64,000 nucleotides of DNA from Candidatus Omnitrophota bacterium (GCA_022703585.1 JAKLDJ010000001.1:246891-310890), one strand, 5' to 3'; positions 1 through 64,000 are shown, numbered from the stretch's first letter. The notes: generated from the sequence alone by a model not told the origin. A program made the numbers and translations.

Positions 1-420
1 AAACCGGCAAGTTCTATGCTATGCCGGTTGGTGATTTCATAAAGTCCCGGCCAGGTCCCGATATTCGAAATAACCGCCGTTTTGCCCTTAAATTCTTTAA
101 TGCGCCGGGCTAAATGTTCAGGAGAAGAAAGATCTTCCTGATGCAAATAATAATCTTTTCCCGGAATGAGGCCGTTAAGCCTGAAATTCTCCTGCGCATG
201 AGACAACAATCTAAAGTCATTATCAATCAGATCAAACCTTGCCGCGCCTAACCGCCATGCCGCCAGCGCCAGGATTCCTTCTGCGCAGCCGGCATCAATA
301 ACGCGTTTACCGGCTAAATCACAATGGAGTATCGCCGCGATAGCGGAAGTCGTATAGACGTGATGGCGGTTTAAGGCAAATATGCATAAGTCGAGATCCT
401 GGATAAGAATAACGTTTCGG
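1..420 (-). CDS. SAM-dependent methyltransferase small domain (RsmC/PrmA-like). It is in the -1 frame relative to the giant ORF, has no in-frame start codon, is partial (runs off the window start), and is probably the C-terminal continuation of the giant ORF through a frame disruption.
   Basis: Translation: RNVILIQDLDLCIFALNRHHVYTTSAIAAILHCDLAGKRVIDAGCAEGILALAAWRLGAARFDLIDNDFRLL...IKEFKGKTAVISNIGTWPG. Motif I is VIDAGCAEG. The frame has an in-frame TGA at 469-471 upstream and no ATG/GTG/TTG start between that TGA and the domain. The giant frame ends TAA 372-374 inside this domain. Confidence 0.55.
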
Positions 421-6400: not shown

Positions 6401-9400
6401 CGTGAGTAAGAATTCCGTTTGAAGAGCCGTTGGCAATAACGGTAATCCGCGCCCGAGGCAATCTTTTCCTTAATTCCTTTAGCATCGGAATAAACAGAAC
6501 CGTGTCGCCCATGCCGTCGTGTAAAAAGACAATAACGGTTCGAGCCGAAGAAAAATCCGCCCGCTGCCGGCCCAGGTATATTCTCGTCAGAAACTTAACC
6601 GGATACAGCCCCAAAAGGACTCCTTCTCTTATAAATTTCTTTGCTGTTCTAAGCAAAATTTTTGAGAGTATTTTCACGGCAAGGACAAAGGCGTATCGCG
6701 CCGACCATTGCTGCTCTTCTTTAACAAGCTTCTCGATGCGCCATTCAATAGGAGAAAGATTTCCGTCCGGCATGCGGTATCCGGGCCCCATTAACAAAGT
6801 CAGGATGCTAAAATATCCGGGCAGGCGGCGGGAGTTAATCTTTTCTCGATAGGCTTCAGTTTCTTCATCCGCCGTAATCGGCCTGGGGCCAAAAAACGAC
6901 ATCTCTCCTTTTATAATATTAAAGATTTGCGGCAATTCATCCAGGCCGGTTAAACGTAAAAACTTTCCTATCAGCCCGCTGCGGTTATCTCTCATGGTGC
7001 GTATTTTATAAACCCTAAACATCGTTCCCTGATATCCGACACGTTCCTGGATAAAGAATCCCGGCTTTTTGAAATCGGAAAGCTTAACGGTGGCCCACAA
7101 AATTCCAATCATCGGCAGAATCACGGGCATCGCAATCCACGGAACCACCCTATCAATCAACTTGATATACCAAAGATTATGAATGAGTTTCCCGGCGTCT
7201 CCGCCTTGCGGATTTTTCTGACGATCTTCTGCTATCATCCCCGTCAGGGACAGAAGAACCAATCCCGGCACCAGGCAGCCGAGCCTATCGGATACGGCGG
7301 AATCACCGCGGCCTTCGCCTTCAGTTTCAGTAATCGGTATTAGGCGCAGCCTTCGTTCCAATAACTGCTCAAGCCGGGCTTGTTGTTTTTCGCGCGAATC
7401 GCTGCGGTCATCGCCAAAGCCGCCCCGCACCCGGACAGTAAGATATTCCCACCCGTTCTCAAAATAAAACGGCGTGTAACCATTACGTATTAAGAAATAA
7501 TTGGCCATAAACCAGGCAAGCCGGTGATGGCCGTCGGCGGTATGGGGAGCAAGCGCCCCGCGTTGCTGCCGGCCGCCGGGAGTAACCGTGTCAAATCCGG
7601 CTAACCCGGGAAAAAGCCTGGGGATATAAGTAAAATTGAAATTTAGAAACGCCTGTCCAAACCCGACGGCCTTATAGATACGCGCTGCCACGCGGATAAC
7701 GATTGCGCGATCGGCATACCGCCGATTCGCCCAGTCAACATACGGCATCCCCGCCACCGACTGCAACCGTTGTCCCCGTATCTCAGCGGTATAGGCAGGA
7801 TTTTCTCTGTCGCCTCTGAATAATTCATACATGTCCATGGCATACTCCCATGTCAGCGGCACCCCGGAGGCAATGAGCCGGTTAAAATAATCGATAGCGG
7901 ATTCAAGCCGCGGCATAATATTAGAAGAAGCCAATGCCGCCGCTCGTTCGGGCTCGAGCCGGGCTTGAGCAATCATTCTCGTTGCCGACCCGGCCTCGAT
8001 GAGGCCAAAAAGCCCTAATAAGGCCGAGGCGGGCAGGAAGGCGGCGATCGTATCGTCGTGGCTTGGTTCTTCATCCACAGCTTGCGGCATTACAGATAAC
8101 ACGCTGCCCGAATCAATATCTTGGGTAAACGAGATATACGCATCGAGTGCGGCGCTATAGGCTTCCGCAACAAAACGTTTTTCATCCAAAGACGGATGAT
8201 TCTCTTCTCCGATCGAAAATAGCCGGCTGCGCATGGATTGCGCAACGGCGCTTTTGCCCTGCAGGAATTCTAACAGTGTCAAGGCAGCAGATATTCTCTT
8301 TGCGGCTTTTCTGAAATGCTCATCCTCTGTTTTCTTTTTAATAAAAGTATTGTTCATCCGTTGATGAGATATAATCAACAACCTCGAAATTTCGGCTATA
8401 TTGTTTTGGAATTGGTTTGGCGTACTAACAAATTCTTTACCCCACACAACAAGCTGAGCCTTATTGGTTCGCGTGCGGTGAGAGTTAACAACCCATACCG
8501 GATGGTCTATAATCACACCTTGGGGCACCTCCGGAGTCACATCGCTTTCCAACACTTCCCGGCCTGTTATGATCATACCCATTTTTTGTATTTGCTTTTC
8601 CAGGGTTATATCTTCGGGCAAGGCTAAAACCAGGTGATCTATATCCAAAGCGGTTAAAATTCTCCCCTCAACAACAACCAGAATGTCTAAATCACGAGGG
8701 TGCGCACTATACAGATAGCTTCCGAAAAACGATATATTGACAACTTCGTACCCTAAGGATTGACGAATATATGAGAGTAGGCACGGAACAATCTGCAAGA
8801 GTGATCGAGCCGTTGCAAATACTTTTTCCTGGTGGGGCTTCTTGAGAATTTTAAAAATTCGCATATAATTAAGCTGCTCTAAGAGCAGTTCGTCTGTTGA
8901 TACATCAACATCACGATCGGATAACACCCTCAACGGAAATTCAAATACATAGTCCCGCATCTCGGGAACAGCAAGCTCGGCAATTTTCAATTTATCTGCA
9001 TTAGTCAATTGATTGATTGTGTTACCTTCTGAATAGCTGCGCGGATGATGAAAATCTTCGCTCTCTCCCGCTTGTCGCGGCCCGGCAGCGGACAACTCAC
9101 TCCTTCTTCCATCGCCCTTTTCGTCTCTCGTCATCCCCATGAGTACCATCGGCAGCGCCAGCAGAAAAGCAAACGGCACAAAGGAGCAGGCAAGCTCGCC
9201 GTTGATGTAGGAAGCCACGTCCCGGCCAATCGGCAGGTTAGCACGCACGCGCACCAAATTCCGGAGGTATTCATACGGTACCGGTGCGCTGAAATTATTC
9301 CTAGACCCGATAATACAATCAATGCGCAGGGCTTTCTTATCATACGTTGCTTCGGCTGGGATAATCAGGCCCCTTGGTTCCCGATGGGCAAAAAGCCTGA

Positions 9401-12400
9401 TAAGCCAGGAGAGAGCCGTAGTGTAGTGGCCGTTCGCCCGCGCAAGCACGTCCAGCAATGTTGACGGCCGGCGCAAGACATAACTGCCGTTATGGCTTTG
9501 ATGTTCTAAAATCCATCCCTTAATATTTGCTCCGTCGACAAATACATCGTTGAGGATAACGGCCAGGTGGCTGCCGACGGCACTGCGGGCATCATTCGCC
9601 CAGTTCTTAACACCGAGCACAATCAATCCTCTGATGTCCCGATGGTCCTGGCGCACAACGCGCATCACGCTGCCCCGCGGGTACGCCTGCGAAGAATCGA
9701 TAACGAGCCCCTGATGATTAACAACCACAACATCTGTTAGTCCGGCGTGTAGCGCGCGCAGGAAACGCCGTTCCACTTTTTCACACGCAGGAGACACAAT
9801 CTTGAATAACCCTATATCAACAAGCCACATCTTTTCTGCTTCTGAAAACCGTATGCCATAGATACCTGATTTTCTATATAACGGGATTGGCTGCAGTTGC
9901 ACCGCACCCTGGGCTTTCCCGACGCCATCTCGCACCATCCCCATCATCAGCCCCGTAAAAAAGAACCCGGATCCGAGGAGGCCAAGGGCCGAAACGGACG
10001 TGAACATAAAAGGATTGATAATGCAGCTGACAGATTCGTCGGAGGCAAACGGAACATTTGGCTCAGACAGCCTTTGGACGCCTTTTGAACTATTCAGCTT
10101 GCGAATATGCCTCTTGATTAACAAGACTCTAAGAAAGGTCGGAGAATGAAATAGGTAAGCCCAAAATCCTCTGGATCCTTTGATTATTTTCAGGAATTCG
10201 TACGGATGAGATATATCAAACCCTGCCTCATGCGCAAATTTAATTCCCAAAAAGTCAGCCCTCAACTCAAAATACCATCTGCGTACAACCGAAATAGAAA
10301 CGATGGCGCATCCGATCAAGATCTTATTGACGGAATATTCGTCAAAAAACGTGTTTTCAACAACCGATAAAATCATCAGCTTCATCAGGAAACCGGCAAA
10401 TTCCACGTTCCCCTTTGTGGAAAGCTCGTTTCTCGACTGTCTATCAAGTTTTACTATATGGGCAAAGACCGCGTAAGCCACTCCTTTTGGATCTCGGCTT
10501 TCTAAAGAAACAACATGATGCTTCTCGGTCGTATGGGCAAGTTCGTGCCCCAGGATAAGAGCCCTTGTTGATTGGTGAAGGGTAAAAAATTTATTGTTGA
10601 TAATGATACCCGGCTGACGGAGGAATAATGCCGCGGCATTAACCTTTTTCTGGGAAAATCCTGAAATATTCAACAGGGTGTATTTAAAGCAGTTTAAGCC
10701 CGGATAATGATTGGATGCGGCCCTGATCAGCTCTCCCAACATGTACTTTGTTTCTTGTATTTTGTTCCTCTGCACAGGCACGTAAACAGCTTTGGTGGCG
10801 AATAGATTTCGTGCCCAATATAACCTAATAGCCGCGGAAATAAGACTGATAGCAATCATGGCTTTGGTCAAGTCTCCAAGCCCGGCTGTACTCAACGAGG
10901 TTTTAAAGATGCCAACAACATAGATGAAGAATCCGGCAATCGCCACCGCTCTTATATTGGATATTACGGAAGGCATCACTTTGTTGTGATGAGCCATCCT
11001 GCTGTAAATGATCTTGAATGTTTTCAGGGCCGCCGCTGCCAAGATGACATTTCTCAAGAAGACATCATTCCAAATCAAACCAATCCACGTTCCTCCTGTC
11101 AAAAGCCCGGCCCCTTCGACTGCGCTCAGGGCGAGCCCGATGAGGCCAAAAAGCCCTAATAAGGCCGAGGCGGGCAGGAAGGCGGCGACCGAATCACCGT
11201 CATCACCGGCCGTTGGCGGTAATCGATCTTTACCGGACTTGCCCCCCTGGATAAGGTGCCGTTTGCGCAACTCTGTTAAGGTTTCGCTTCGAGAGCGTTT
11301 AATGAGATAGGTACGAGCAAAAGCCACAACTCCGAGCGTAGCCAAGAAACTCACGAGATATTCAATGACCTGCCGTAATGAACCAGGCGGCTCAACAACG
11401 GCAAGCACCAGGAGGCCGAGGGCAGCCGCAAGAATAACCACGTCACGTTCTGCCCTGATAAGACGCCCTATTTTCACCAGAGACTTGCCCAGGTCAAAAG
11501 TGGCCCATCCCAGGCCGGTAAAAAGAAAGATGAAGATTATTAAATCCGTAAAATCAAGGACTATGCCGCCGCTCCTCATCCAATCGCGCACTCCGCCGAC
11601 AAAGGTAAAATCTAACATACGCGCGAATAAAATACCGCACCCGAGCCCCATCCATAGATGCCATAAACGCTTTTTCACATTGATTAAGTTAGCGAGAAGA
11701 TAGGCAGCCCAAAAGTCTGCCAAAATCGTGCCCAGCTCAAGCATCTGCGCCTTGTCCCCATAGTGAACAAGATTCTCTAACGAGATATTGCCGGTCAGAA
11801 TATCGTAAAAGCGGCCTATGGCTGTTTTTAAATTTGAAACAAGCGAGAAATCCTGCGCACTGGTCATGTCTCCGGGTATCGAATGAAATGTTTTTTCGGG
11901 AATAGTCAGCCAGACATAAATTTTAAAGGTCCAGTCGATCAGGGAAATGGCAATCATGGGAATCATCAGGTGCGGCTTGGGATGCAGGCGGGACAACAAA
12001 CGCTGCGGCGGCCCGTCCGCCAGAAAATCTGTCGAGACAGGTCTCGCCCCGACAGTATGTCGGGGCGGACCGCGACGGGTCATCGCCGCATGGGCCATGC
12101 GATTCTTCGAAACCACTGCCGCCCAGGAAATCCCGACAAGACAAACAATCGTCAGCATAAAAGGCCACAGGATAACGGCCGCAAGCTCAGATTCGTCGAC
12201 GGCCGCGGACCCGGGAGGCGCGAAATACTCCGAGAGATGCACGGCGACCGCGTCATGGAAATTGCGCTGCGCGTTCACGGCACGGGCCCATTTTCTAAAA
12301 CGCTCTGTGTAGTCATCGTATGCCAGAAACATGTCGCGTGCTTCGGGGACAGCGTGAGAAAAAGGCAATCCTTGATGTCCCGTTTCTATACAACTGGAAT

Positions 12401-15400
12401 GTAACTCCAAACGAAAGTGTCGATAATATTCGTAGGAAGGCTCAAAGAAAAACGGCTTTGCAGCGCTGAGCTCAGTCGACACCGTCCCGTAACCGGTAAC
12501 CAAAGACGGCAAGTTGCAGGCGGCAACCAACGCGCTAAAGTCACGAAACGGGATACGATTTAAATTAACCAGTAAAACCCGTCCCATCGGCGTATTCATC
12601 GGCACAATGTAGGGCTTATGTTTGACAAAGCGAAACACAACAATAGGCCTGTCGGCAAGCGGCAACTTCTTAGAATGCGCGGTATTCAAAGCATCGCGTA
12701 CTAAATCAAGGTAGGCAAATACTACGCTCTCATCGTGGGCATGTGGCATCACTAAGCCCCAGCGCGCTTCCCGGATAATATCAACCGCCCCCAAATATTC
12801 ATCGCTCAGCTGCCCCGCAAACATTTCCAGCAATGCCAGCCGTAAGTAAGCGCTGCCGTCGATGGCAATATTATCCATCAAATCTTCGTCAAGAATGGCT
12901 CCGTGTGAACCGCTGGTAACGCCCGGATATAACATGCGAACATTGTCAATCGGTACTGAGTCTGCGTATACAGATAATGACGGCTTTGATATTGCAAAAC
13001 CGTATTCGGGAAACACGATACTCATGGGGGCAACAATACCCTGGCCTGCCAGTTCACGGTAGAGCCTGGCTGTCATTCTATTCCCCGACGCATAGTAAAC
13101 CGTCGGATAGGTGATAACATAATCGCCGATATTTGCAAGGTCAGCGTAGGCTATATACATAATGCCATTCACTTCATTTTCCGGTACCGCCCAATCGATG
13201 TTAGGGAAAAAGCCCGAGAGCAATTGGTAAGAATATTGCTGGATAAATACACGAACTGTCGCGTCAGGGAAACGACGTTTAATGCCGCGCGCCACCATAA
13301 TCGACAGCCCGATATCACCCACGCCATCCGGCAAGACTTCGGGAATAACGTTGACGGCATGATCAAACATCATCCGCTCCAGCCATGCCGGCCAGGCAAG
13401 CGTCTGGGGCGCTTCCAGAACAGAAGCCGACTGCGTCATGCCTGCCAACGGCAGGCAGACTAAAGACCAGAGACTAAAGACAAAATTAAAATCGGCAAAC
13501 GGCAGGAAGGCAGCGAGTGGGGTTCCGTTATCCAACGACTGACCGAAAGGACCAAGCAGTCGTTGTGGAGTGACCGGCGCCTCAGCAAGCTCAACGTATT
13601 CGATGTCCTCATTAAGCCATTTCAAGATCACCTGTGTCATATGTGTATTAATAATAAGATATCCTTTGCGTTTAAGCATCATCAGGCTCTCGCGGTCTTC
13701 GACAGTCACGAATACAGGGGTAAGGATATCGTACATTAGTTGCAAGGATGCAGCCCAGAGTACCCGCTGCAGGACGATTTGTTCCCGCGTCGAGAGCTTG
13801 CCTTCTGCCCAATCGTTAAAAATAGTCTCGCGCAAAGTTTCCTGCGGCGTCACTTCAGCGGCACTCGTGTTATCCAACTCCGAGAGTGAAACGTCAGCGG
13901 GGTTAAACCGTAATACCTCCCCTGCCATTAACCGGCGATACAGCTCCCGAGTGGTATTGTGAATGACGTTCACATCATAAATACTCGACGTACCCATAAC
14001 GCCCTTTCCCCCGTCAATGACCGCCTCATATCCCATGCCGCGCAACACCTCGTCGAGGGCGATACGAGTTAACCAATCGAGCTGTCCGGAATCCAGTTTC
14101 TTGACAAGACCACTGGCGATCTTCGCGGCTTCCATATCATGGCGCTGGCCAATCTTGCCTAAGGCAATAACCAGCGGAATAGTTGCCGGTGAATCAACCG
14201 GCGAGGAACCCAGTGCTTCAAGCAAGGCGCCAATCGCCCTGCGCCCAACCTTGACCAAGGTTTGAATTACGACACGCTGTGAATAATCGGAGACAACGCC
14301 GGTAAGGCTCACCAGACGTGCCAATGCCGACCGTTCTTTGCTAAGGCCAAGCTGACGGATGGCCTTATTACGTATGGAGGGAACAACGTCCGTCAATTGC
14401 TCTTCCAATGTTTCGACCGGGATAACGGCGGTTTCAACATCCATCGTTCGGCGATTATGCACTTTGATAATTTCGATAACCCTGACAAATTCGGGAATAT
14501 CCTCAAAACCGATTGTCTCAATCTTGATAATGTCAACGCGAACACCCAGGCGCTGCGTGATGTGCTCCATCACCTCGAAGGTACCGATCCCCTCGTAGAT
14601 AATCACGTCAATTGTACGATCATAATACGCCTCAAGGATATGTTCACGGGCTTCCGCGTCATGACGTTCAACATCCATATAATCGTAGTTCATGACAAAG
14701 ACGCGGTCAGCCGGAATGCCTAGACCACCACACTGCAATTCTTTCGCGAGATGCGTCTTGCCTGAGGTGCTAGCACCGCCAATAACTAGAATAACCTTGG
14801 TAGGACTGTCAGTAATAATCTGGCGGACCAAACGAATCCCTTCGCGCTGCGTGATGATCTGCTGAACTTCTTGAGTCGAGATTATCGCTTCCTCCGTTTC
14901 CTCGGAAACCCAATTATCCGAAATACAGGTTGAGGATAGCACCAAATGTTTAATGCCCTGATTCTGTTCGTCCATAACAACGTAGCAATCGATAAATTCC
15001 GCTCCCATGGCATCCGCCACTCGACCCCAAAGATTGGCACGCACCGCTTCACTCGAGACCTTGTTGACGGGTTTCAAGGGATCCTTCTGAAGTAAAATTT
15101 CAATAATATCCGCCCGCAGGCGCTCAGCAATCTCGTCACGCACCGCAAAATATTCTCCGTTACCAATAACAAAATTCCTGAGTTGCTCATCATCGAAGAT
15201 ATCGACTATCGCAGCTTTTTTGTCATTGAAGCCCGGAACCATCATGGTAGCAAAATGTTCATATGCCAATAAGTCCTGGCGCAGCCTGCCGATAACATTC
15301 ACCCCTTTTTGGATAAAAAGATCTCCTTGTTCAAATTGCGCCTCGAGTGCTCTGGCAATATAATAAAGGCTTTCGATTTCCGTCATACGAATCTGAACCT

Positions 15401-18400
15401 TAAAAGCCCTCACGGCGTTTGATTTGAACCGTTCGCCTAATAATCGCGCGAACGCGCTAAAGACGCCACGGCCCGAAATCAACAGCAACTGACTATCTAA
15501 AAGATGAATCTTTCCGCGAGGCCCTATGTGCCCGTAGATATAGACGCCTCTGATGCGTCGGCCAGTTGCCTGATCCGCAAAGAAGATTGCCCAGAATAAT
15601 TTCCCTTTATATTCCTGGCGCAACGCCTGCGTGCGGACACTCACCAACTCATCAAACCGGCCGATATCGGTCAAAAGTTCCGCGCACCCGCCTTGTATAA
15701 TCTCAAAATCAAAAACCAGTTCCCGCGCCAAATGAGCAACATCGGTAGAGAATGAAACCACATAACACCTGCCGGCTTTATCTTTGACCTGTTCACCATC
15801 TAGAGAACGCAAGATCCCAAAGGCCTCTTTTTGCTGAGCCGTAAAAAGTAATTCATGCTGCAGCGCTTCAATCCATGAAATCACTTGACGGTAATGGCGG
15901 ACTTGCTGCGCTGACAAAAAGGCATTCTCGCCTAATGGGCCGCCCATGGCCGCCCCCTTGACGTCAATCGCTACGCCACAGACATCGAGCTCTTGATGCC
16001 GCTCAAGCCGGTGTTGGCACTCTTCGAGCACAACCTGCAATTGTTCCTGCAATTCCCTTTCCATCATATCGGGCTCGACCATGCACGTCTTAAGGGTACG
16101 GGCAATGAACTCCAGCTTTCCGAAAGAATACGTATTAGTCAAGAACCAGATTTCTAGTAAATGCGCGATAAGCGACTCCCGTTTCTTCTGAGTGGCATCA
16201 TAGAGCTCAGCCGGTCTTCCTATATAATCGCGCAACAATGCCTTAACCCGTCCGGTTTCGTGGCGTCCGGCATAACGGTCGATATCTGCACGTAATTCCG
16301 CACCCAACTCTCTGGCAAGGTTAAGGCCTTTCATGTAACCAGCCAACATCTCTCTGTTCACGGCAATTTCAAAGGGCATATCTTCACCGGGAATACTGAC
16401 AAGTAGAGCCGGCATTATCGCTAAGATTTTCTCAACGACTGCCACAAACTCTTGTTGTGTTAACGCGCCGTCGTCTAAAAATGCGGATACCGCCGCCTGC
16501 TCGGCAAGGTCAGGCGTTAACATCATGGCGACAATCTCGGAGACATCTTCACCGCTGGTATATAATTCCCGGATTGCCCGGGCACCACTAACGCCATAGT
16601 AGTTTTCTATGAACTCGACCGTTTCCTTGTCTATATTTCTAAAGCGGTACATCCTGCCATCCGCGCTATATGCCTGCTGTGGCATTAATAATTCTTTCAA
16701 CGCACTCTCCAACATACCCAACATCACCGCACGTTCATTATTGGTATCATCCATCCGTCCCAATAACGGCATCAGCGCGAACAGGGAGAGAAACGGAACA
16801 AAGGCGGTGAGGGTGTCCACCTTTTGACCGTCCGGTGTCCGGCGGTAAAAAGGAAGCTCAACGACAAATCGGTATTTATACAAGCCTTCTTCCTGGCTGA
16901 CAAATTCCGTCGATACGCGTAATGGTTTCGGGTGCCAGGCAAGAGGAGTAAAGGTTAAGTTTTTTCCGGCAGCCGAGGCAAGGATTCCTCGCAACCCCGC
17001 CCAATCCTCGTCGGTCACATCGTGTTTAAAGAGAGCGAACCGGATGCGTTTGATTCCGTATTCCAGCATTTTGTTGGAGTCTAGAACCAGTTCTTCCATG
17101 TTCTGCGGTCCCAAGAATTCAAATTTCAAAAGCGCTACCGGGCCCTTGGCGCCGCCGCTAATCGTCAACAAATGTTTCTCGGTATCAAACTGGTCTCTGA
17201 ACATGCTTTCAAAGGCAGTTTTAATAGATACCCCTTGAGGAATAAACGGGCTCACCATAATTGTGCGGCTGGGGAAAATGATTGTCCGCGGGGTTAAGCA
17301 AAAGTCGAGCGTGATAATCCGTCTGTTGCTATCATGAGAAACGATTCCTGTTTCTTGTGTAACAGCCCGATCACTGCGGCGGCCTTCACCGAGTCCGGCA
17401 GGAACTTCAGAAGAACTGCCGGGTTGCGACTTCTCGGCTTTGATAATATCGCCTTGATCCTCGACGCCCAGGCTATTCTCTTCGGGCTGCGCAGACGCTA
17501 CCTCGCGATCGAGATCATCGCCAGCGTGTCCGCACATGGCCTCGATTTCCTCGCGGATACCTTCAACTACATCCTCCATTGCCCCTATTTGAAGCGCCGC
17601 CTTCTTAAACTTCCGGGACACCTTAAACCGGAGATAGAGATCCAAGCCCGCCAGAAACAGACTAATACCGAAGCCGGCCAGGGCAATAAATAACGGGCTC
17701 AAGGCGGCAAGCTCGTCGTCCGACGTATCACTATCGGGGACAGACCCCGCCTCATCTTGGATGTGTCCCCTTTCTACGCCTGGGACTGTCCCAGGTGTGG
17801 CTTGGGGACAGGTCGGAGTTACGGCGGGCCGTCCATCAAAAGATCCATCGGGACGAGCCTCGCCACGAAATTCGGCGGGGTCTGTCCCCGTTTCCACTTC
17901 CATGGCGGACCCGGCAGGAAGAGTTATGTTCTTAATCCCGGCATAATCAAATCCCGTGGCCTCAACAGCGGCCTTCCAAGAACCAAAGTACTTGGCGCCC
18001 GCGGTATACACAGAATTTAGGGAAATATTTATTTTAAAATGATCGTAAAGAATTCTTCTCGCTTGCGGCGGATTACACCTCATTGCAGTAAAAGATAAAT
18101 CAATCCTGCCATAGAGCAGTGTAATCGCTTCAATAATCCTTTCTCTATTCCAGAATCTATCCGGCACCTGCTGCCTTCGCGGCGACTGCACCTTTTTTAA
18201 CGGCCGCAATTTCCCGTTATGGCTCACCGTCAATGTCCCGTTGGATTCCCGCAGAATCCACTTACGCAACCGCTCAATGGCTTTTGCATGAATTTGGCAC
18301 GCGCGAGATTCAGTTACCCCCAAGCTCTCGCCGATTGTCTTTAGCGTCATCCCTTCCAGATAATACCGGCGCACAACATATTGCTCTTTTTTCGGCAACC

Positions 18401-21400
18401 GCGGCAGGTGCTTGGCAACCACATGTGTCAAAAACGCCCTGTTTTCATATTGGATATCAAATCTATACGGCGCAGCGACATCCATCGCTTCCAAAATATC
18501 CCTCTCGCCCTCTCCATCCTCGCCTAGAGATAATTCTTCCAGCGATACCCGATAGGTCGCGCCGGAGAGTATATCTCTAACAATTTCTCTGGACAATCCG
18601 GCGCGCTCGGCAATTTGGGCAATATCAGGATACCGAACACCTTCGGCGGCAAGAGCCGTCTGGGCATTCAGCATCCGGGAGACACAAGACCGGCTTGTAC
18701 GGCTTTCCCACATCTCAAGGCGTGCCTGGTCAATCATGCGGGGCCTTAGTATGCCTATTATCCAGGTCTTGAGACTCGCCCCTCTTGAACTATCAAATTT
18801 TTGAATAGCTTCTAAAACCGCCGCCTGGCCAGCGCTAATGAGTACTTCGAAATCTACTGTGGAATACTGTTCCCGAACAGAAAATGCTGTTTTTCTTATT
18901 ATAGGTAGCCACTCCTCAAGAACTGCACTGTTTTGATCAAATGTTTGTGCGCGCAAGCCGCGACGAAGCCTGGAGCCTTCCGTCCTTTTTACCTTGGGTT
19001 GGCGCGGTTGGCGAAGCTCATACTTACTTCTGCCGATTTTCGGATAGCCTGCCGCGACTAAATCAGCATTCATCTTTTTGCTGTAATAGTGCACGGCACT
19101 TTTATCTATTTTGAGTTCCACCATAATCATTTTGCGAGTCAACGGATTTCTGGGCCAGTCATTGGGGTCGGAAATCCCGTCAAAATGTTGTTTTGCCAAA
19201 GCCAGCAACTGCGGATGAAGCATGTCATATCGGGAACTCCCGGGCTGGCGCGGTTGGCGAGGCTGACCAGGTTCACGCCTGCTTCTGCTAAAGAGAGGAT
19301 AGCCGGCATTAACCAGGTCTTGACCCATCTTGCCCTTATAATATTTATAAATCCATGCCGGAATACTTAAGGCAATCATAATGCTCGCCGGAGTCAACGG
19401 ATTCTTAGGCCAGTCATTGGGGTCGAGAATCGCGTCAAAGTGTTGTTTTGCCAAGGCCAGCAACTGCGGACGAAGCGTGCCATAGCGGGAAGTCCCGGGC
19501 TGACGAGGCCGATAGGGCCCACGCTTGCCTCTGCCGATTTTCGGATAGCCTGCCGCGGCTAAAGCACTATTCATCTTTTTACTGTAGTATTGCACAGAAT
19601 TTCTATTTAATTTGAGCTCCGCCATAATGATTTTCTGAGTCAACGGATTCTTAGGCCAGTCATTGGGATCGGGAATCGCGCCAAAGTGTCGTTTTGCCAA
19701 GGCCATTAATTGAGAACAAAGCGCATCGTATTTTCTTACCCGTGGCTGTCTGGGTTTCGCAAGTTTAACCGGATTCCTTCCAATTTCGGGATAACCTGCC
19801 GATAGTAAATCAATGTTCATCTTTCTTTTATAGTTTCTTATAAAGAATTCATTTACGCTTAAGGAAGACATAATCACTTTCCTGGTCAAGGGGTGATTGG
19901 GCCACTCTGCAGGCAAATGTGAATCAAAATGTTTTCTGGCCAATTCCAAAAGCCGGGGACGAAAGGCATCGTAGACGAGTACCCTGGGCTGGCGCGGTTG
20001 TTGAGGCTGGCGAGACTGGCCGGGCTCACGCCTGCTTGTGCTGATTTTAGGATAGCCTTCTTTCTCTAAAAAGGCCTGTATTTCAGGACGGTGTCCTAAA
20101 TAAATCGATTTGCTGACATTCGGCCAGGACAAAATCATTTTCTTGATTAGAGGATGATTCTCCCGCTCCTGAGGATCAAATTGGTCAAAGTGCTGCCGGA
20201 TACGGTTCTGGATGTCAGGAAAAACAATCATAAAATTTGGCCCTCGAGACCGACCGGTTTTGGGACGGATTTTTCTTGCCGCTGGTTGCTTAGGCTCAGC
20301 GGATCGGTTGCCTCTTTTCCGGGCAATCTCCGGATAATGCTGTTCCGCTAAATAGGCCTGTATCTCCGCTCGATGCCGGACATAAATGCCTGCTCTCATT
20401 TCGGGCCAGGATAAAATCATCATCTTGGTCAGAGGATGATTTTCCCGTTCTTCGGGCGTAAATTGCGCAAAGTATTCGTCAATGCGGCGCTTGATATCAG
20501 GGAAAATAGTACCAAAATGAGGACTGTAGGGACGGCCGGTTTTGGGACGGCTTTTGGACACAACAGAGACTTTTTCTCTCCTGGGCTGAGGTTGTTTTCT
20601 GGGCTGACCGGACTCACGCCTGCTTCTGCCGATTTTCGGATAGCCTGCGTTTTTCAAATCGACGTTCATCCTTTTCTTATAGTTTCGTATGAAAGATTTA
20701 TTTACTCCCAGGGAAGACATAATAATCTTTCCGGTCAAGGGGTGATTAAGCCGCTCTTTTTTATCAGGGATTGCCGCAAAGTGTTTTTGGGCCAACGCCA
20801 GAAGCCGGAGACGGAAGGCATCATAAACGGATATCCTGGACTGGTGTGACCGACGAGTCTGACGCGATTGGCGAAGCTGGGGAAGCTTGCGGTTACTTCT
20901 GCCGACGATGGGGTAACCGGCTGCTATCAAATCAGCGTTCATCTTTCTTTTGTAGTTTCTAATAAAAGATTCGTTTACTCCCAGCAAAGACATGATAATT
21001 TCCTTGGTCAAGGGGTGATTGCGCCATTCCTTTTTATTAGGGATCGCCGCAAAGTATTTCTTAGATAATGCCAGAAGCCGGGGACGGAAGGCATCATAGA
21101 CCAACACTCTGGACTGGCCGGGCCTTGGCTCAGCAACTCCCTTTGACTCAGCGTCTTTCAGGCGGCCCGTCAGAAAGATAGCGGACAGGCAAGATAAGAA
21201 AATAAATGGCGTGAACGGCACGATAAACGCGGCCAGGCTTTCGCTCAGCTGTATCAAGCTTTCTTCGGGCCCGGTCAATGACGATAAAATTTTCTGCCGC
21301 CGCGCGTAAAAATAATTTACGACCCGGCGCTGAACCATCAATGCGGCGACCGGATCAACAATAGAATCATTCAGCCAGAGCGGCTCATCAATATCGCCGA

Positions 21401-24400
21401 TAATAATACCGTCTTCGATAATGAACTCAAACAATCCCTGTTTCGTCCGGTGCAAGGCTTCATAGTGGCCGTGAAAATGGGGTAAAAGCTGGAGTGTTGT
21501 TGCCAATATAAAATTAGCCGTTGGGGGACAGGGTGTTTTCCTGAACACCCGTATTGTCCTCCGGAATAAATGCTCAAGCTTATGCGGGGCAATGTCAAAA
21601 ACCTCAATAACGTTATTGTTCGATCCATCGGCGCGCGAAACCATTTTTAGGTCAATCGCACGATACAGATCGCTATACACCTCTCTGTCAAGCTCTCTCA
21701 TCCCGTAGGCATCGGCGGCAATCTCGGCCAGCATGCAGCGCACCGAGCCCTTGAATCCCGTATCAACGACAAGAACCGGTTTTTCCCGATGGCGAAGAAT
21801 ATCCGAAGCAATGCCAAAACCGTTCAGAAATTCTATTTTCGTTTCTCTGTTCGTATCATGTTTGATATAGCACATCAGGCATCCGCTCGCGGGCAGAAGC
21901 ATAATCTTTTGTTCATTCGGGGTACCGGCAAGCACGGTCTTAAGCGCGTCGTAGAACACTTCCGCGTCGCGCCCGGCAATTAAAATAGTGCTGTAGCGGT
22001 CGATTTCAGAAACAATCTTCGCCACCATAATTTCAAGATATGGCAGAAGATGCTCAAGCTCTTTGAACACAACGCTATCGTGCAGGGATTCGAATGAATT
22101 GTGCTTAAAAACCCGACGCGCGCCCTCTACGATATCCGTTATCCTTAAATTGTGTGCCGCAAGCGGCTCGGGACGCGGATGAGGATAGCGAAGCGCGTTA
22201 CTGATGTGCTCCGCTTGTGTCATTCCCGCCAACGCCATACTTACGGGCAAGACCATAAACGGCATAAACAAACACGCGAGCTCGGAAGTCGAATCTTCCC
22301 CTTTAAATCCGTCAGCGCGTATCCTGGCATCAGCCTCAAAGTAGCACTCAAAATCCCTCGTCCGGGATTCTTCAGCCCCCGAAGACGGCTCCCGGGAAAC
22401 TTTCATAACAAAATATAAATCTTGGTAATCAAGACCGAGAAACGCGACGATGTAACGGAAGCTAAAATCGGGATCTTTCTTGGCAGTTGCCATCAAATGC
22501 CCGCAGGCTTGCTTGTATTCCGTCTGGAACCAGCCGTCGGCATCCGTCATGCGCCAAAACATTTCCGCGATAGGTTCATACGGCTTAAACAAATCCGCGC
22601 CCATATTGCACATGATTCCGTTAAATCTTCCAAAATCTTTTTCAAACCGGTTCAATTGATCGGCATCGCGGTTATCCATCAAAACCGATTGAATGGTAAT
22701 CCGGGCTTCGCTTTTGGCGGCAAAAGATTCGGCGGTCCTCCTGGCCAATTTGAGCTTCTCTTCTGACAGGTTCGAGAGGACAATAATGATTTTACGGCCC
22801 TTGAGGGCTTTAGGATTTTGGAAGGAAATCGCAGAGAAGAATGCGTGAACATCATTTTGCTGGGCGGCGTTAATCCAATAGCGCAGCGTCTGGTCGGTGC
22901 CGTGCAAGGCGATATCGCGGGCGATTAAAGCTTCAAAATAAATCCAGGATTCGATATTAAATGTATCGCAGCAAACTATACAGTCACCTACTCCGGGGGC
23001 GGCTTTAAGATAAGAAATGTCCGGCGGGGCTCTGGAGGTAATAGACAGTTGCGTGGCCCTCTCCAACGGCCCGGCTTCGCTGAGACCTGCGAAGGCCGAA
23101 ACGGGCAGAAACACCAGCGGCATCAAGAACATAAAGGCGCGAAGCGTGTCTTTACCGGCGTCTTGCGTCGGTATCGGACGCTCAAAGGTCTGATCAACCA
23201 TCCGCAAGCTCAACGCCTCGTTAAGGCGTTTCGTGGCCTGGCCGGAAAGTTCTCCGGCGTCAATCTTTAACAGGTTTAACGTCATGATTTTTGTCTGGTC
23301 GACATCGGGCGGGTCTTTTTTGTATTCCTCATCGACGGAGAGAGAAATATCAACCTGAAGTGTAAAGTAAAGTTCGCTCACCATGCGGTAGCCAACAATC
23401 GCGTCCGCATAGTTTTTCTTCGCAAAACATTTTTCGGCATGAGCAAAGACACTTGAAATAGTCTCATATTGTTTTTTATAAGTCCCACCGGCGCGGTGGA
23501 ATTCCGCGCGCAGTGCCGCGTATTGCGCGCGCGCTTCGGGCGAGACATCGGCTGCAGCATCAATTATAGCGATTTGCCGCGCCGAGAGCGGCGGTGGTGG
23601 CAGTTGAGCTGTCCCGGCACAGCCGTTCAACAGAACCGGACAGAGGGCCAACACCACGGCCAGCAGAATCGGCAGCAGGCAATAGGATTCTTCAGCCTCG
23701 CCTTCAGAAAAAGAGAAATTCCTGCCGGCGTATTTCGCCTGCCAGGTTTCCGCGTCGCCGCCCATAATAAACATCCGGCCGCGATGCTGTTTGATGCGCA
23801 ATAATTCTTTAACCAGCCTTATTTCGCTGCCCTCATCCAACAAATCGGTGAAATTATTGGCGATAACCAGATCGGCTTGCCCGAGATATCCGCTCTCAAA
23901 GTCCATAATGTCGCCGCGAACAAGCTGTATCCTTTCACGATAAACGCTTAAATTGCGATTGACCTCCTCCATGACCTCAAGGGCCTGCTGCGCCATGGCC
24001 TGTAGCCCTTCGCCGACAGGGATCCATCTCTCGTCAAGAGCCGCCAAGATATCAAAACCATCTTGCAATTGCTGTTGCGCCTCTTGATGCAGCGTCTGGT
24101 CTTTTTCTATGGCAATAACTCGAAAATCAAAGGTTTCAAAATTCGGGATTTGCCGTTGTGCTTTGTTGTACAGCAACCACATCCAGCTCACGGCTTCCTG
24201 CCCGCGGGCTGAACCGGGGATAAGAATTCGAATTGTCCGCTCTCTGTCCCGCCGCCTGAGGGCAGTAATCTCTTTCACATTTCTGATAAATGTTTCTTCC
24301 TGTTCTGGATACCGCGCAAACCGGCTATACGAATCTGTCTGCCTTGTTAAGGTAAAAGAACGAAGCGCGATGTCCAACATCACATTAAGAAGGGGACTGT

Positions 24401-27400
24401 CGCCGCGCTCGAGTCTTTCGAAGACAACGCTGTAGCGTCCGTGATATGGGGCGCGGGTAAACAGCCGCGTATACCCAAATCGGGTGATGAAAAATTCTAA
24501 CCCCTCAAACAAGCTTAGCGGCTGACTTTGATATCTCCTGCCCAATGCCGTTAAGACGGTTCTAAAGGACTCACGGTCTACTAGCCACCCGGCCGGCGCA
24601 TCAAAACGCCCGAAGGAGAGCCGAACGTCTCTGGCATACCGCCACTGCATCCGGGCTGCCTCGACGGTCTCGGGCTTGCCTTGAATCTGTTCTCGCCAAT
24701 CCATCGCCCCTAATAATGGCGCCAGCGCAAATAGGGTTACAAACGGAACAAACGCAGCCACAGTATCCTCGCCATGAAAACCAGCGCGGCTATCGCTGAT
24801 GGGCAGGCGAATGATAACACGCACCGTATTCGCGAATTCTCTAATTTCGAGTGTTCCGTCGTGAACCTCTACTATTAAACGGCTTAACGGAATTCCAACG
24901 CCTCTCCCATGAGAACCCGTAACAAACCAATCAAAAAGATGCCCCCGCATAAAAGGCGCAATGCGTCCTTTGTTTTCTATTCTTACGGAAACAAAGCGTC
25001 CTTTCCTGCCGGAAATTATTCTGTGCTTAACAGCCACGTCTTCTTTGGAGGCACGCCATGCATTATAGATTATTTCATTAAATACCTTTGAGGGGCCAAG
25101 CCACACTTGCTGTAATCCATCAACACGGGCAGGCCCTTGAAAGGATGTTCGTTCCTTCAGAAATGAGTTAAGGCAAGAAGATAGCACCTCCTGAACATCA
25201 ACGGGATTAACCACTCTTTTTTCAAAACCAAGCAGCCAGCCTATTTGACTGGCGAGTATTGCTAATTCGGCGCTCAATTGTATCCTCTGCGTTGTCAGCT
25301 CTTGAAACTTTCTATCGGTTATCAATGCAAACAGGTCCTTGTTCTCGTCAGAATCAAATCCTTCCGCAACTACTGAACCCCAGCATCCAAACAAACCTTG
25401 GGCGCCTATTCGTATAACTGCCAGATAGTGGCTCATGGATTCTCTGTCTTCCAAAGACGGCCGGGGCCTGTCTAACCGGCCTTCCAGCATCCCGGCATAG
25501 CTATTAAAAAGCGGTGACGAGAAATCGTGGTAAAGCCAGGTATCGGCGATAACCGGCCACAATTTTCTCCAGACATGGACAACTACCTCATCTAAGAGAA
25601 ACTCGGCAAGCGGCCTGTCCATTCTTCCGGCATGTGATTGTGAAATGTCCTGAACGCGCTTAAAGAAAGTAACCGTTAAGCGTTTATCAGCGGAGAGCGA
25701 TCTGAGCATCCCCAGGGCGGTTGATTCCTTTTCGTTTACCATCCCCAAAAGCGGCACAAACATCATTGGTCCCAGGGCAAACGGCACCAGGCAGCCGAGA
25801 TCATCATCCAGCGACGGCTTTTGGGCCACAAAGCCGCTTAAATAGCTGACAAAACCCTCCGTACCGGGAATCGAAACCGCCTGGTCGGCAATAACAGAGA
25901 ATCCGGCATCCAAAAACTCTCCCCTGTAGACTTCAGGGGCTGCATGTACCGTTACCGACAGGATTTTAATTTCTCCTTCCGCAATTTGCCGAATGAGTTC
26001 TTGGGCCGTATAACGGGTTGCGTCAATGCCCTCTCCTTTTACGCCGCGCAATACCATCATCGGATACATTTGATGATCTTCCAGGATTGCCTCAAAATCT
26101 TTAGATACGATAATACCTGTTTCAACCAGCTGCCGGAGAACCTGCCTGTGGAGGGCATAGCTTTTGGTATACCACCGGCCGCGATTCTCCGTCGGCATAA
26201 CACGCCGATAGTCCAGGAATGATACAAGTCCGCCCGGCTTTACGATACGGAATATCTCGCTTAAGATCCGGCGGCGTTTAGAAAGCAAGGGAATCATATT
26301 CAAGGCGCGATGGAACACCGCCGCGTCCAATACGCCTTCCGGCAAATAGGCCTCTTCGGCTAAATCCGCCTGCTGATAAGAAAGGGCCGGCTGAGGTGAA
26401 TTCTTGAGATGCATCAAAGCCACAATCGCGGCCGTCGCCTCCTGATAATTAAGGGATTGTGCTAACGCATTTGAACGGGAGGCGGCCACATACCGGTGTT
26501 CTCTCTCCAGACCAAGAACATTAAATCCTTGCCCATACAACCATTCACTGATTTGACCCGCACCCGAACCGACATCGGCAACAACCATCCTGTCATTTTG
26601 ATTCAGTTCCTGCCGCGCCTGACTTTGAAGTATCCGCGCCAAAACCACGGGATACGTATGCATATAACTGACGTCTTCTCTTCCGCTAAAGTAACCCCAA
26701 TTTGTCAAAATCCGCTGTTGGTTGACGCCCGCTACTAACCTGGCAGCATGCCTTGTTTTCATCAGGCGCGGGTCTCGTATTATTCTTGATTGTGAAATAC
26801 CTTCAAGCCTAGGCATAACATTGACATCGTCTTGTTCATCCTCTACGGCAGCCAGGGAAGTTAAGACCAAAGACCAGAGACCAAAGACTAGGTTTAAATC
26901 GGCGACGAGCATAAACGCGCCGAGTGCTTCAGCTGCCTCCGGAGATGCGGATAAGAGCTTTTCACCATCTGCCCAGTGTGCATTGCGGAGCATTTCTTCC
27001 AAAACAGCCTGCGTTGCTTTGGCTGCCGCCGGGTTTTTGCTGACCCGCATAAACTGCGACTCTTTTCCCGAAAAGGCCCTGAGTATGTCCATAAGAGTCT
27101 GCGAATTGACATCTACCCCTATTCCCAGTGGTGTTTCCCCGGGCTCCCGTTCGAACCCACCAAAAACCAATGCGGCAACGCGCGGTTCTGAGCCCGACTC
27201 AACGATTACCAGAGGCGAACCCGAATCACCGGGAATAGTCTCAACCCGATCGGAGCAAATGCTCCCAGAATCCCTGTGAAGATATCCCGCTGATACCCTG
27301 TTTTCCCCGGTCAATACCCTATTTCTACCGCTTACGAGAATTGCCAATGTGTTATTTCTCCAGGAAAAATCAAAAGGCATAGGCTGAAGGCTGCCAGCCA

Positions 27401-30400
27401 CCTTATCAATGGGTACCGCAAGAAATGCAATATCGTCCTTGGGATCATCTGGCTCAATGTCCGCCCTACGCACCACAACCTCTGCCCTGGCAACAAACCT
27501 GGCTCCATGCCTGCGGCCTCTTAAAACGGCAATCGTTTCCTCGTCACACACAACGTGTGTAGCAGTAGCCAAAATATAATAACCGAACTCTTTGCCGACG
27601 ACAAAAGTGCTTCCCGACCCCTCTCTTCCCGACTTCTGCGCTCCTGGCGCATGCGTTCTCGGTGCCGGCTTTCCGGGCGCATAACCATGTTTTAGCTTGA
27701 ATACACTGTTCGCGAACACACCCTGCCTGCAGCGCTCGCGCAGGAGGTCTTCAGCGCGCGTTTTCACAAGAAGCCTATTCGCTTCTTCTTGTTCAAGTCC
27801 TTTTTTAACCCGGGCGATTTTTTTGTCTGCTATTGTATCCAGCACATACCAATAGAAATGTTTACTCAGAGACGCGACTATAATACCCACGAATACCCAC
27901 GAACACACGGCGTCGAGCCCGAACAGCGCACTCGATTCTTCGGCCGCAAGTTCTCCGGCGGCGGCTGTTTTCTCCCGTTGGGCCGCGTCAAGAGTGGCAA
28001 TCTCAGATTGTTGAGGGCCGAAACGCCGCGCACGATTAAGCATTCGTTTTGAACGGATAATATCCTGAGAGGTCACCCACTGCTGGGCCAAGACATCAAC
28101 CTGCGCAGTCTCAATCGTAAGCAATTCTTTTAATGCGGCTTGCCAATAACCGCCGCTAACTACCGCCGTACTGACGCCAAACCATCGCCCAACCATGGCG
28201 GGCCCGGGAAGCGTGTCCGGATTATTGTCTTGGACAAATTGTACGAGCTCCTCAACGATTGCACTAACCGGGTTACGCGCGAACCGCGCCGCTCTTCTGC
28301 GCCGGATATCAGGCTCTAGGCTTAATAAATCGAGCGCCTCATACCAATGCGGGTTAAATATCTCTTCCGGCCAGCCAAAATGAATCTTAACATCCCGGCG
28401 GCGGGGAAGCTTAACAACCGACGGGTCATCGAGTACCCGGTTAAGATAGCGAACAATCGCGCCGGTTAATTGCGCCTGGGGCACCATAACTCCTTGGGCA
28501 ACAAGAACGGCGCAAACACCGTCCCAGCGTTCCCGTACGTAATTTTCGGTAAAACCAAACCACGCTGGTATCATTTTTATAGACGGAAAAGTGCCATATT
28601 CCGCGGCATACCGAATAATCTCATCGGTGATTGCTTGTGTTTTATCCGTCGCGAGTTCAAACCGGGCAGAACGCTGCAGCGAGGCGTTTCCTTCTTGTTC
28701 GATTGCGCTTAATACACCTCTTCGGTAATATTTGCGGATAATCGTTTCCTCCATCCCGAACCAAGCGCCAACAATGCGCGGATGGGGCACGGTATTTTTC
28801 GCCCGCTCAAGGATAGTTGTCGTAATCGTTTGAATGGGGTCCCGTTTATAGCTGACGGCGCGGCGCATCGTTTCATCGCCCTCCACCAGCAGAATATCAA
28901 GCGCATCCTGATAATCCGAAGCGATAAAGGTGATACCGAAACGTTTGAGGATTTCATTTTCCGAGGCAACATACCGGCGCAGCAAATCATCCTTAAAATC
29001 TTGCATAAGCGCTAATGCAATGGTACGCGGCCGGGTGGCGAAATTTTCGAAGCCTGCCGCCATTTGCACCCTGCCGGTAGCGAGCACAAACAGCATTTCC
29101 ATGGTTGTCGCCCAATAGCGCCCAACCACATGCTTAGAAAGACCGGTTAAGATCGCCACTTCTTTTTGCATAAGCATTCTGATTCTTTCGTCGTCGCGGG
29201 AAAACGCCGCAGAGACAGCATAAAACATGCGCTCAACAATTCTATCGGCATCTGTCAGGCTGTCCTCGCTCATCCGTGAGCTGATAACCGCCCTCTGAAG
29301 TTCGCTCTTGCGCATTTCCGGCAACCAGCACGTGCCCGCCGCATACGCCGCCGGCTCAAAAGGCGCCAAGCGGTTTACGGCAATAAAATAAATGATTTTT
29401 GAAACATGGATTGTCCGGGCAATTGCTTCCGGCACCTGCCCCACGGTATTCTTCCGGGCAGCCGAAAGCAATGTATCTTCATCGTTCTCGAACATAACCC
29501 GCAACCGTTCAATAATCGCCTGACGCAAACGGCACATAACAAATTCGCTGACACCCAGTTCACGCGCAATAGCACGCTGGGTTACCCCGGCGCGCAAACT
29601 CCGGATAATATGTTGCTCCCTCGGTCCCAGCCGGGGCAGATATTTATCAAAAATAAGCGCGACAAACTCGTCCTTGCCAAGCCTTTCTTCAACATCCGGC
29701 ATAGACGAACCGGCAAGCACATCAATTTCTCCGGGCGTCATTTCTTCGCCGTCCGACGCTAAAGAAGAAAACGGCACAATGGTTGCCGGCCCGCGCAAGA
29801 AGGCCTGAACCTGCTCTTCTTTTAATCCTGCCTTGCGGGCGATATCCTCGACACCCGGATAACGATTGCCCTCCATCTCAAGCGCGTGGCGGGCTTTAGC
29901 AATATCACGGCGAATATTATTAACCCAGCGGGATGTCCATCCTTCCCTTCTCGCTTGGTCGAGCATCCGATTGCGCACTTTTGATATAACATGGCTGCGC
30001 AATGACATCCCCCGTGAAGAGTCATAGGTCGTAAGCGCCTGCTGCACCCCTTCCCAGCCGCCGCTGGTCAAGGTTTCCCATTCGCTCGGCATGCCAACCT
30101 TCCAGGCAATCTGATGAGCCATACTGCGGACAACCGATTCCCACTGCGCATACTTTTGCTCTTCCTGCATCCTGCCTATCATCATAAAAGGTAAAATGAA
30201 ACAACCCAAGGCCTCGTCTGCTGCGTCGGCTGCGGGATGAATTACTTCTACAGATGCATCGCTGCTGCCGTTGGATGCGGCTGCCTTCTGAGCGGGAAGA
30301 ATATTTGCACGCGGCCCTGCAGCGCTATCGCGTATCGGTTGAGCGATATGATATGTATCAATCATCGCCATCACTTTCTTCAAATATTTCAAAAATACCG

Positions 30401-63746: not shown

Positions 63747-64000
63747 GTCAGGAACCACATGGCAAACAAATCCCAGGGCAGCAAGGGTCCGGGCGGTAAT
63801 AGCCTGGAAGAGATTGCTGTGATACCGTACCTCATGGCCGTAATTCGTCTGATAAGGGAAGTACGCTCCCTTGTTATAAAGAATCTTCACCATAAGGCCT
63901 AAGGATAACGATGTCAGCAGCCTTTCAAAAGAATTCTTAATAACCCGGGTATCGTGAATATCGGTAATATTCATCGCATGCCTGATACCGGCGATCGCCA
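63638..64000 (-). CDS. 5-prime continuation of the giant ORF in a different frame. It encodes the N-terminal part of the phosphohexomutase (PGM/PMM/GlmM-like) module, ends at TAA 63638-63640, overlaps the main frame, and runs off the window end.
   Basis: Translation in frame +2 reads ...IHDTRVIKNSFERLL...ITARTLAALGFVCHVVPDNAATAIWN. The main-frame sequence TSTMGKFFNFVLSFCGTSSHSPSNVDGLK continues it (SASHNP-like active-site Ser motif). Protein-level continuity across the junction implies a 1-nt frame disruption near 63715-63725. Confidence 0.5.

Follow-up and report, generated by a model that had tools for sequence, protein, structure and literature searches.

Sigma factors are free, diffusible subunits. 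Why a complete sigma domain should sit in the interior of a protein of more than 21,000 residues is the question raised by a 64,000-nucleotide stretch of DNA (hereafter the window) from a Candidatus Omnitrophota bacterium (GCA_022703585.1 JAKLDJ010000001.1:246891-310890). A preliminary description of the window had placed a sigma factor region 2/4 within a giant reading frame, directly behind eight divergent tandem repeats. The features it named are all present, although the strand is the minus strand, on which all of the features given below lie. Beyond the strand, the analysis reported here adds to that description a region 3 within the sigma domain, and a second sigma module with helix-turn-helix (HTH)-like arrays of its own.

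The minus-strand frame spanning window positions 3..63998 contains 0 stops in 21,332 codons, compared with 648-1,401 stops in each of the other five frames. The giant multi-domain open reading frame (ORF) is therefore real: a single stop-free frame that continues past both window ends, so that all 64 kb of the window lie inside one giant gene of at least 21,332 codons. Amino acid (aa) positions given below are those of this window ORF.

The embedded sigma domain

Sigma module 1 (18261..18920, -) is a full-length FliA/WhiG-type sigma-70-family domain, as detected with TIGR02479, TIGR02937 and Pfam, the last of which located region 2 (18711-18917), region 3 (18504-18674) and region 4 (18261-18407). 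The top NCBIfam family is FliA_WhiG TIGR02479, with E = 2.5e-36 over profile positions 2-221 of 224, and the sigma-70 superfamily model TIGR02937 is passed with 74.4 bits (cut-off 42.9). Sigma70_r4 (PF04545, 65.2 bits, cut-off 24.1) and Sigma70_r2 (PF04542, 32.8 bits, cut-off 24) are both above threshold, and Sigma70_r3 (21.1 bits) falls just short of its cut-off of 25.3. The region 2/4 assignment made earlier is thus borne out by strong hidden Markov model (HMM) hits at full length, and the region 4 peptide quoted at the time, LPRLPKKEQYVVRRYYLEGMTLKTIGESLGVTESRACQIHAKAIER, was recovered at aa 15199-15244 (window about 18267-18404). Module 1 also aligns end to end with the WhiG structure 6pfv (1.7e-24) and with the FliA structures 9wsf, 6pmi and 1rp3.

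A set of 24 free-standing FliA proteins, in which 50 columns are at least 85% conserved, was used for comparison, and module 1 retains 31 of these 50 columns. Starting at the LP motif and continuing through region 4, all FliA-conserved columns are kept but one (L212R), LGVTESRxCQIH included, so that region 4 is essentially canonical (LPxxE..V..YY.EG.TLK.IG..LGVTESR.CQIH..A..RLR). The core-binding surface of region 2.2 (LISAG..A.L.AI.KFD..RG) is largely kept as well. Region 2.3-2.4 is rewritten (F to L, Y to W, A to I, G to P, A to R, L to A, D to M and P to S), and the motif R.RM[IL]DQAR.E.W.SR stands in region 2 in place of the FliA motif RGA..DELR..DW.PRS.

When the sigma domain together with two repeats was searched against a database of 5.8e9 proteins, only free FliA proteins of at most 35% identity were returned, and no giant relative; the 69 database relatives of module 1 are all 257-351 aa in length. 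In GTDB genomes, JGI metagenomes and IMG/VR, the only hit to the sigma module was a Bacteroides sigma factor of 25% identity. A 1,701-aa multi-domain query, which is poorly suited to such a search, gave one weak hit and no giant relative in the 5.8e9-protein database. The Dus domain (52479-53981, -; Pfam 6.5e-35), the best-conserved enzyme domain of the ORF, found only free DusB proteins of 27-37% identity in the same 5.8-billion-protein database. Every ORF domain tested is at most 37% identical to known sequences, and the lineage of this ORF appears to be either absent from the collections searched or very fast evolving.

An internal translation start for module 1 was considered but found no support: within 35 codons upstream of the sigma domain there is no ATG, GTG or Shine-Dalgarno-like motif, only a TTG that has no Shine-Dalgarno sequence. 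Sigma-70-type promoter matches in the window are at chance level, and no Rfam elements were found in it.

The basic repeat array and the second sigma module

Alignment and a unit HMM recover exactly eight tandem repeats ahead of the sigma domain, as first described, with domain E-values of 1e-35 to 1e-41 for the HMM against its own copies and no ninth copy in the remainder of the 21,332 aa. Array 1 (19002..21116, -; aa 14295-14999) comprises the units R1 (20871-21116), R2 (20598-20843), R3 (20295-20534), R4 (20010-20252), R5 (19749-19991), R6 (19503-19748), R7 (19257-19502) and R8 (19002-19247). The unit size of ~85-97 aa given in the preliminary description needs correction, as the cores measure 80-82 aa and their start-to-start spacing is 81-103 aa, the spacing varying because the basic Pro/Gln/Arg linkers differ in length. 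Three subfamilies (R1, R2, R5; R3, R4; R6, R7, R8) follow one another in the order A A B B A C C C, and differ chiefly in the putative second helix of the HTH (IRNYKRKM, Y(V/L)xHRxEI or VQYYSKKM). The most conserved positions lie at the loops and at the end of the unit, namely N(H/P)PL and Y68-P69 of GYP.

The copies share 40-74% pairwise identity in DNA and 16-70% in protein; their synonymous divergence is at least 0.7 and mostly saturated, and the ratio of non-synonymous to synonymous divergence (dN/dS) is 0.13-0.55 for the measurable pairs. As judged from these sequence comparisons, such ratios with near-saturated dS indicate long-term purifying selection on old duplications. The worry that the repeats might be collapsed or expanded copies generated in assembly is thereby removed, because they are old, divergent and selectively maintained. 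Tandem Repeats Finder likewise reported no tandem of the repeat's period in the array, only a trivial 9-bp repeat, and an assembly artefact or a recent tandem expansion of the array was ruled out from the 40-74% DNA identity, the near-saturated synonymous sites and this result.

With a net charge of +82 and an isoelectric point (pI) of 10.69, array 1 exceeds every other 705-aa stretch of the ORF in basicity, lying ~4.5 standard deviations above the mean (mean -1.5, standard deviation 18.7), and DNA binding is plausible from its charge and pI. The unit folds confidently in structure prediction, as a helical domain with an HTH-like three-dimensional topology, and the predicted fold may be described as three/four-helix and HTH-like. 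Around the array (18000-22000) the plus-strand skews depart from those elsewhere in the window (GC skew -0.06 to +0.02, AT skew -0.05 to -0.08), which probably reflects the Arg/Lys/Pro-rich composition of the repeats.

No curated HTH or Pfam family matched the array-1 unit above threshold, the only candidate being HTH_29 (E = 0.0036, 17.8 bits versus a cut-off of 28.1). An hhalign comparison with sigma region 4 placed the two in register but was not significant (E = 0.063), and PHROGs gave weak summed hits to unnamed families of ~70 aa. When 1.84 billion representative proteins were searched exhaustively with a HMMER profile, no genuine homologue emerged; the two hits were rejected as spurious, being satellite-like repeat proteins. 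The unit is thus best treated as an orphan family for which "HTH-like", given the predicted structure, is a reasonable fold-level label.

Behind the sigma domain lies a tail element (17943..18152, -; aa 15283-15352, WNRERIIEAI...FGSWKAAVEATGFDY; PF18780, E = 0.015) which resembles the homing-endonuclease-associated HEARO/HNH_repeat helical unit, a sub-threshold hint at 16 bits against a cut-off of 26. Taken together, aa 14277-15435 (~1,160 aa) is, as far as its sequence indicates, a putative nucleic-acid/transcription module of eight HTH-like units, a sigma domain and a short helical tail.

A second FliA-like module, sigma module 2 (29499..30146, -; aa about 11285-11500), sits ~3,700 codons upstream of module 1 and matches TIGR02479 with E = 1.8e-21 over positions 5-223 of 224 (77 bits, also under the subfamily cut-off of 189.6). 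Pfam places its region 2 (32.5 bits) and region 3 (27.1 bits) above threshold. It retains 19 of the 50 FliA-conserved columns, and region 2.3-2.4 is altered in both modules. The two are 35% identical to each other (E = 5e-34), share the derived states F77L, A88R, L93A and P100S in columns where the 24 FliA proteins are 88-100% conserved, and group as sisters against free FliA in 200/200 neighbour-joining bootstraps, a grouping to which long-branch attraction possibly contributes. The shared derived states and the sister grouping suggest a maintained lineage-specific design rather than decay.

Module 2 is accompanied by helical units of a second family (family 2; ~65-75 aa, P..aI......lP...ia..FG.....i..YW..al..l), of which there are 11 copies in all. 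Six lie upstream of it (30324..31562, -; cores from aa 10841, 10911, 10985, 11058, 11118 and 11184), four downstream (28086..29264, -; cores from aa 11607, 11737, 11863 and 11930), and one stands alone at aa 9412 (35640-35849, -). An HMM built from seven hand-picked seeds recovered 4 of the 11 de novo, including those at aa 11737, 11863 and 11930, and had no matches in shuffled controls; BLAST shows the blocks on either side of module 2 to be paralogous (lowest E 1e-28). AlphaFold2 predicts three helices for the family-2 unit, with the topology of the array-1 unit and a predicted local distance difference test score of 84. By hhalign, the HTH of the two families is in register, but the match is not significant (E = 0.02, probability 2.4%), and family-2 units are electrically neutral. 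Nearly all of the internal paralogy of the 21,332 aa at E < 1e-6 comes from the two sigma modules and their arrays. The combination of a sigma domain with an HTH-like array, since it occurs twice, is a repeated design in the giant protein.

Some 700 codons upstream of sigma module 2, at 32247-32492 (-), there is a sub-threshold match to region 2 of an extracytoplasmic function (ECF) sigma factor (PRK05602, E = 0.027). Pfam finds no domain at this position, and the element may be the remnant of a third sigma-like element. In the module at aa 9291-9620 (window about 35138-36128, -), HTH-like strings (VRLFGISLRTLHRH, and the lone family-2 unit at aa 9412) and a region-4-like string (LPKEHRAVARAVL...GYSIKAVSAMFS) were noted by eye, a reading that has no HMM support.

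The sigma-70 superfamily domain is of a known kind, as are giant multi-enzyme ORFs, which are poorly understood. What appears to be new is that a complete group-3 sigma domain lies inside a protein of more than 21,000 aa as one of its modules, that it is present twice, each time with HTH-like arrays, and that the eight-unit basic repeat has no detectable homologue in the 1.84 billion representative proteins. This repeat would add a predicted new family of DNA-binding-like repeats.

Possible release of the sigma domain and the alternatives

Kyte-Doolittle analysis detected 44-47 hydrophobic, transmembrane-like segments in the window ORF, which punctuate it into protein-sized modules. About 25 of them are stereotyped: an acidic/Gly-rich run is followed by ~20 hydrophobic residues, which often start with xAF(L/V)P (variant xAF(L/V/M)(L/P)P) and end with LLG(M/A)(V/T). 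Examples lie at 56883-56939, 47253-47309, 33456-33512, 24705-24761 and 9138-9194 (-). Their flanks are acidic and do not follow the positive-inside pattern, and these segments, instead of being ordinary transmembrane helices, may serve as anchors, re-entrant segments or processing signals. The transcription module containing sigma module 1 is bounded by segments of this series, on its N-terminal side by FIVPFTPFIFLSCLSAIFL (21171..21227, -; aa 14258-14276; 19-aa mean 2.21) and on its C-terminal side by LFIALAGFGISLFLAGLDL (17637..17693, -; aa 15436-15454; score 2.11).

We tentatively hypothesize that sigma module 1 is a built-in alternative sigma factor that faces the cytoplasm, is sequestered within the giant protein and is freed by proteolysis, a scheme offered as possible rather than probable. 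It would serve as the giant protein's own alternative sigma, with regions 2.2 and 4 docking on the RNA polymerase core, the canonical region 4.2 reading a sigma-28-type -35 element and the divergent region 2.3-2.4 reading a lineage-specific -10 element, while the basic HTH array would add multivalent DNA affinity. As long as it formed part of the membrane-associated giant protein, the sigma would be held in a pro-sigma-like state; a protease, possibly the Trypsin_2 or M48 module of this ORF, would then cut it free, so that what happens to the giant protein would be linked to gene expression. That protease domains (Trypsin_2, aa 12129-12264; Peptidase_M48, aa 17781-17936) share the ORF with the sigma modules counts in favour of release. 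Omnitrophota giant proteins have been proposed to be cleaved into smaller products (bioRxiv 10.1101/2023.11.21.568195), and in pro-sigma-K there is a known case of a sigma factor whose activation depends on proteolysis at the membrane (PMC6242693). A complete sigma-28-type domain that occurs twice, both times alongside arrays of HTH-like units, within one chain of more than 21,000 residues would represent a new way to control or localize sigma. Because such a domain is sensible only where RNA polymerase and DNA are, it is also a topological and processing marker in the giant protein.

Several observations weigh against release as an active sigma factor. The TIGR02479 score of module 1, 125.5 bits, is under the NCBI subfamily cut-off of 189.6. 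Nineteen of the 50 FliA-conserved columns are altered in module 1, mostly in region 2.3-2.4, the part concerned with -10 recognition and melting, and given this concentration classical promoter opening by module 1 is not assured. Module 2 has a degenerate region 4 (13.3 bits, below threshold). Sigma-28-type promoters (TAAA-N14-16-GCCGATAA) show no excess over chance in the window, no cleavage site for sigma release is known, and none of the collections searched yielded an orthologue of the sigma/repeat segment. The assumption of one pass per hydrophobic segment puts enzyme domains dependent on S-adenosylmethionine (SAM), adenosine triphosphate (ATP) and reduced nicotinamide adenine dinucleotide phosphate (NADPH) on both sides of the membrane. 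By this count, both sigma modules have the same parity. As cofactor-dependent cytoplasmic-type enzymes occupy both parities, counting gives no consistent topology; a simple alternating topology cannot be right, and segment counting is not interpretable. Transmembrane predictions for Omnitrophota giant proteins have been described as unreliable (bioRxiv 10.1101/2023.11.21.568195).

The hydrophobic segments that bound the module on both sides also suit a model, in our view somewhat doubtful, in which it stays uncut and works in cis, holding RNA polymerase and/or DNA at the envelope with the eight HTH units as a DNA tether. This would resemble ToxR and CadC, which are membrane-bound regulators. 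The ~700-aa array and the ~180-aa tail could act as flexible spacers, the extreme positive charge of the array is appropriate for non-specific DNA tethering, and neither a Shine-Dalgarno sequence with a start codon nor an obvious processing signal is found near the sigma domain. However, a tethered sigma would have to cycle on and off the RNA polymerase core within the steric limits of a protein of more than 21,000 aa, the inconsistent topology is a difficulty here too, and we know of no precedent for a membrane-bound group-3 sigma factor. It is doubtful, too, that the sigma-like and HTH-like modules have been exapted as protein- or nucleic-acid-binding scaffolds that have no role in transcription, with partners such as their own mRNA, the protein's own acidic segments or prey-derived nucleic acids. 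Region 2.3-2.4 does differ in many columns where free-standing FliA is 88-100% conserved, module 2 has lost the canonical residues of region 4.2 (SR to FV, Q to R, H to R), the FliA scores are under the subfamily cut-off and the family-2 units are neutral; domains of giant proteins are, moreover, often highly divergent in published work (bioRxiv 10.1101/2023.11.21.568195). The near-canonical region 4.2 and the preserved region 2.2 of module 1 are nevertheless hard to explain unless they still meet the beta-flap/-35 DNA and the beta' clamp helices, and the derived states shared by the two modules do not look like random decay.

The position of the most conserved residues, at the loops and the unit end, bears on a further proposal, that ...AGYP(K/E)IGR and the basic linker form a processing site, so that the array would be a polyprotein of eight ~10 kDa basic, nucleoid-associated-like HTH proteins, released alongside a free sigma. 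The Arg/Lys-rich linkers, the trypsin-like peptidase domain in the same ORF and the protein-sized ORF modules are in keeping with it, but it is purely inferential, the loop conservation is equally well explained by folding (helix caps), and to our knowledge there is no precedent for a polyprotein of small HTH proteins; we regard it as very unlikely. Coverage of a complete FliA (profile positions 2-221 of 224) would be expected if the module were expressed independently from an internal start as a stand-alone sigma factor, or if its in-frame fusion were an assembly or sequencing artefact. Both are highly improbable. The lack of an ATG, GTG or Shine-Dalgarno motif in the 35 codons upstream and the chance-level promoter-like sites speak against independent expression; zero stops over 64 kb with at least 20 domains in one frame could not be produced by chimeric assembly, and the repeats are too divergent to have been collapsed or expanded in assembly.

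A broader possibility, which we consider unlikely, is that a giant envelope-associated protein with its own sigma factors and multivalent DNA-binding arrays would act as a membrane transcription hub or as an effector delivered to prey. As a hub it would perhaps wire the chromosome and RNA polymerase to the giant protein, driving the giant gene itself or a predation programme. As an effector, by analogy, the module would be delivered into bacterial prey to hijack prey RNA polymerase; phage-encoded sigma factors hijack the RNA polymerase of their hosts. Either version, if true, would be a new mode of sigma-factor deployment.

Related systems and other parts of the reading frame

Like the FliA/WhiG group-3 sigma factors of TIGR02479, module 1 is colinear across regions 2, 3 and 4 and keeps the motifs of regions 4.2 and 2.2. 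Unlike these free proteins of ~240-290 aa, it is internal to an ORF of more than 21,332 aa, has a 705-aa basic repeat array in front and a rewritten region 2.3-2.4, scores below the subfamily cut-off, and is at most 35% identical to any database sigma. The pro-sequences of pro-sigma-K and pro-sigma-E are ~20-30 aa long. In concept, these Bacillus proteins are similar to the release proposed here, in that a sigma within a longer membrane-associated precursor is freed by a protease (PMC6242693), whereas here thousands of residues are attached, the sigma belongs to another subfamily and cleavage is inferred. In comparison with tri-helical or winged HTH domains (TetR N-terminal domain, Rrf2, GntR), which occur as one copy per polypeptide, the array-1 units have no sequence-family membership and stand 8 in tandem with basic linkers.

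The ORF as a whole resembles the Archaeovorin-type, multi-enzyme giant proteins of Omnitrophota (West-Roberts et al., bioRxiv 10.1101/2023.11.21.568195; bioRxiv 10.64898/2026.06.07.730766; Seymour et al. 2023, PMC10066038). It is tens of kilobases long, contains dozens of transmembrane-like segments and is a mosaic of methyltransferase, NUDIX, HATPase_c, peptidase and glycosyltransferase domains (as compared with bioRxiv 10.1101/2023.11.21.568195) that are highly divergent from free-standing homologues. No SecA-DEAD domain was found within the window, beyond both ends of which the ORF extends, and the likeness is one of architecture, as no sequence relative was found. The term sigma factor is absent from bioRxiv 10.1101/2023.11.21.568195, 10.64898/2026.06.07.730766, PMC10066038 and PMC11573180, and no HTH or DNA-binding module is mentioned for giant proteins in the first two.

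Twenty or more recognizable enzyme domains are found in the single giant frame, many of them spanning most of the length of the free-standing protein. The in-frame Pfam domains include Dus, Maf, OGFr_N, two CheR, ARMT1, NUDIX, Trypsin_2, HATPase_c, Peptidase_M48, Bac_transf and Glyco_transf_9, and there are at least six SAM methyltransferases. An unannotated segment of ~180 aa is duplicated in tandem at 34050-35114 (-), aa 9629-9809 and 9797-9983 being 34% identical (E = 2e-23).

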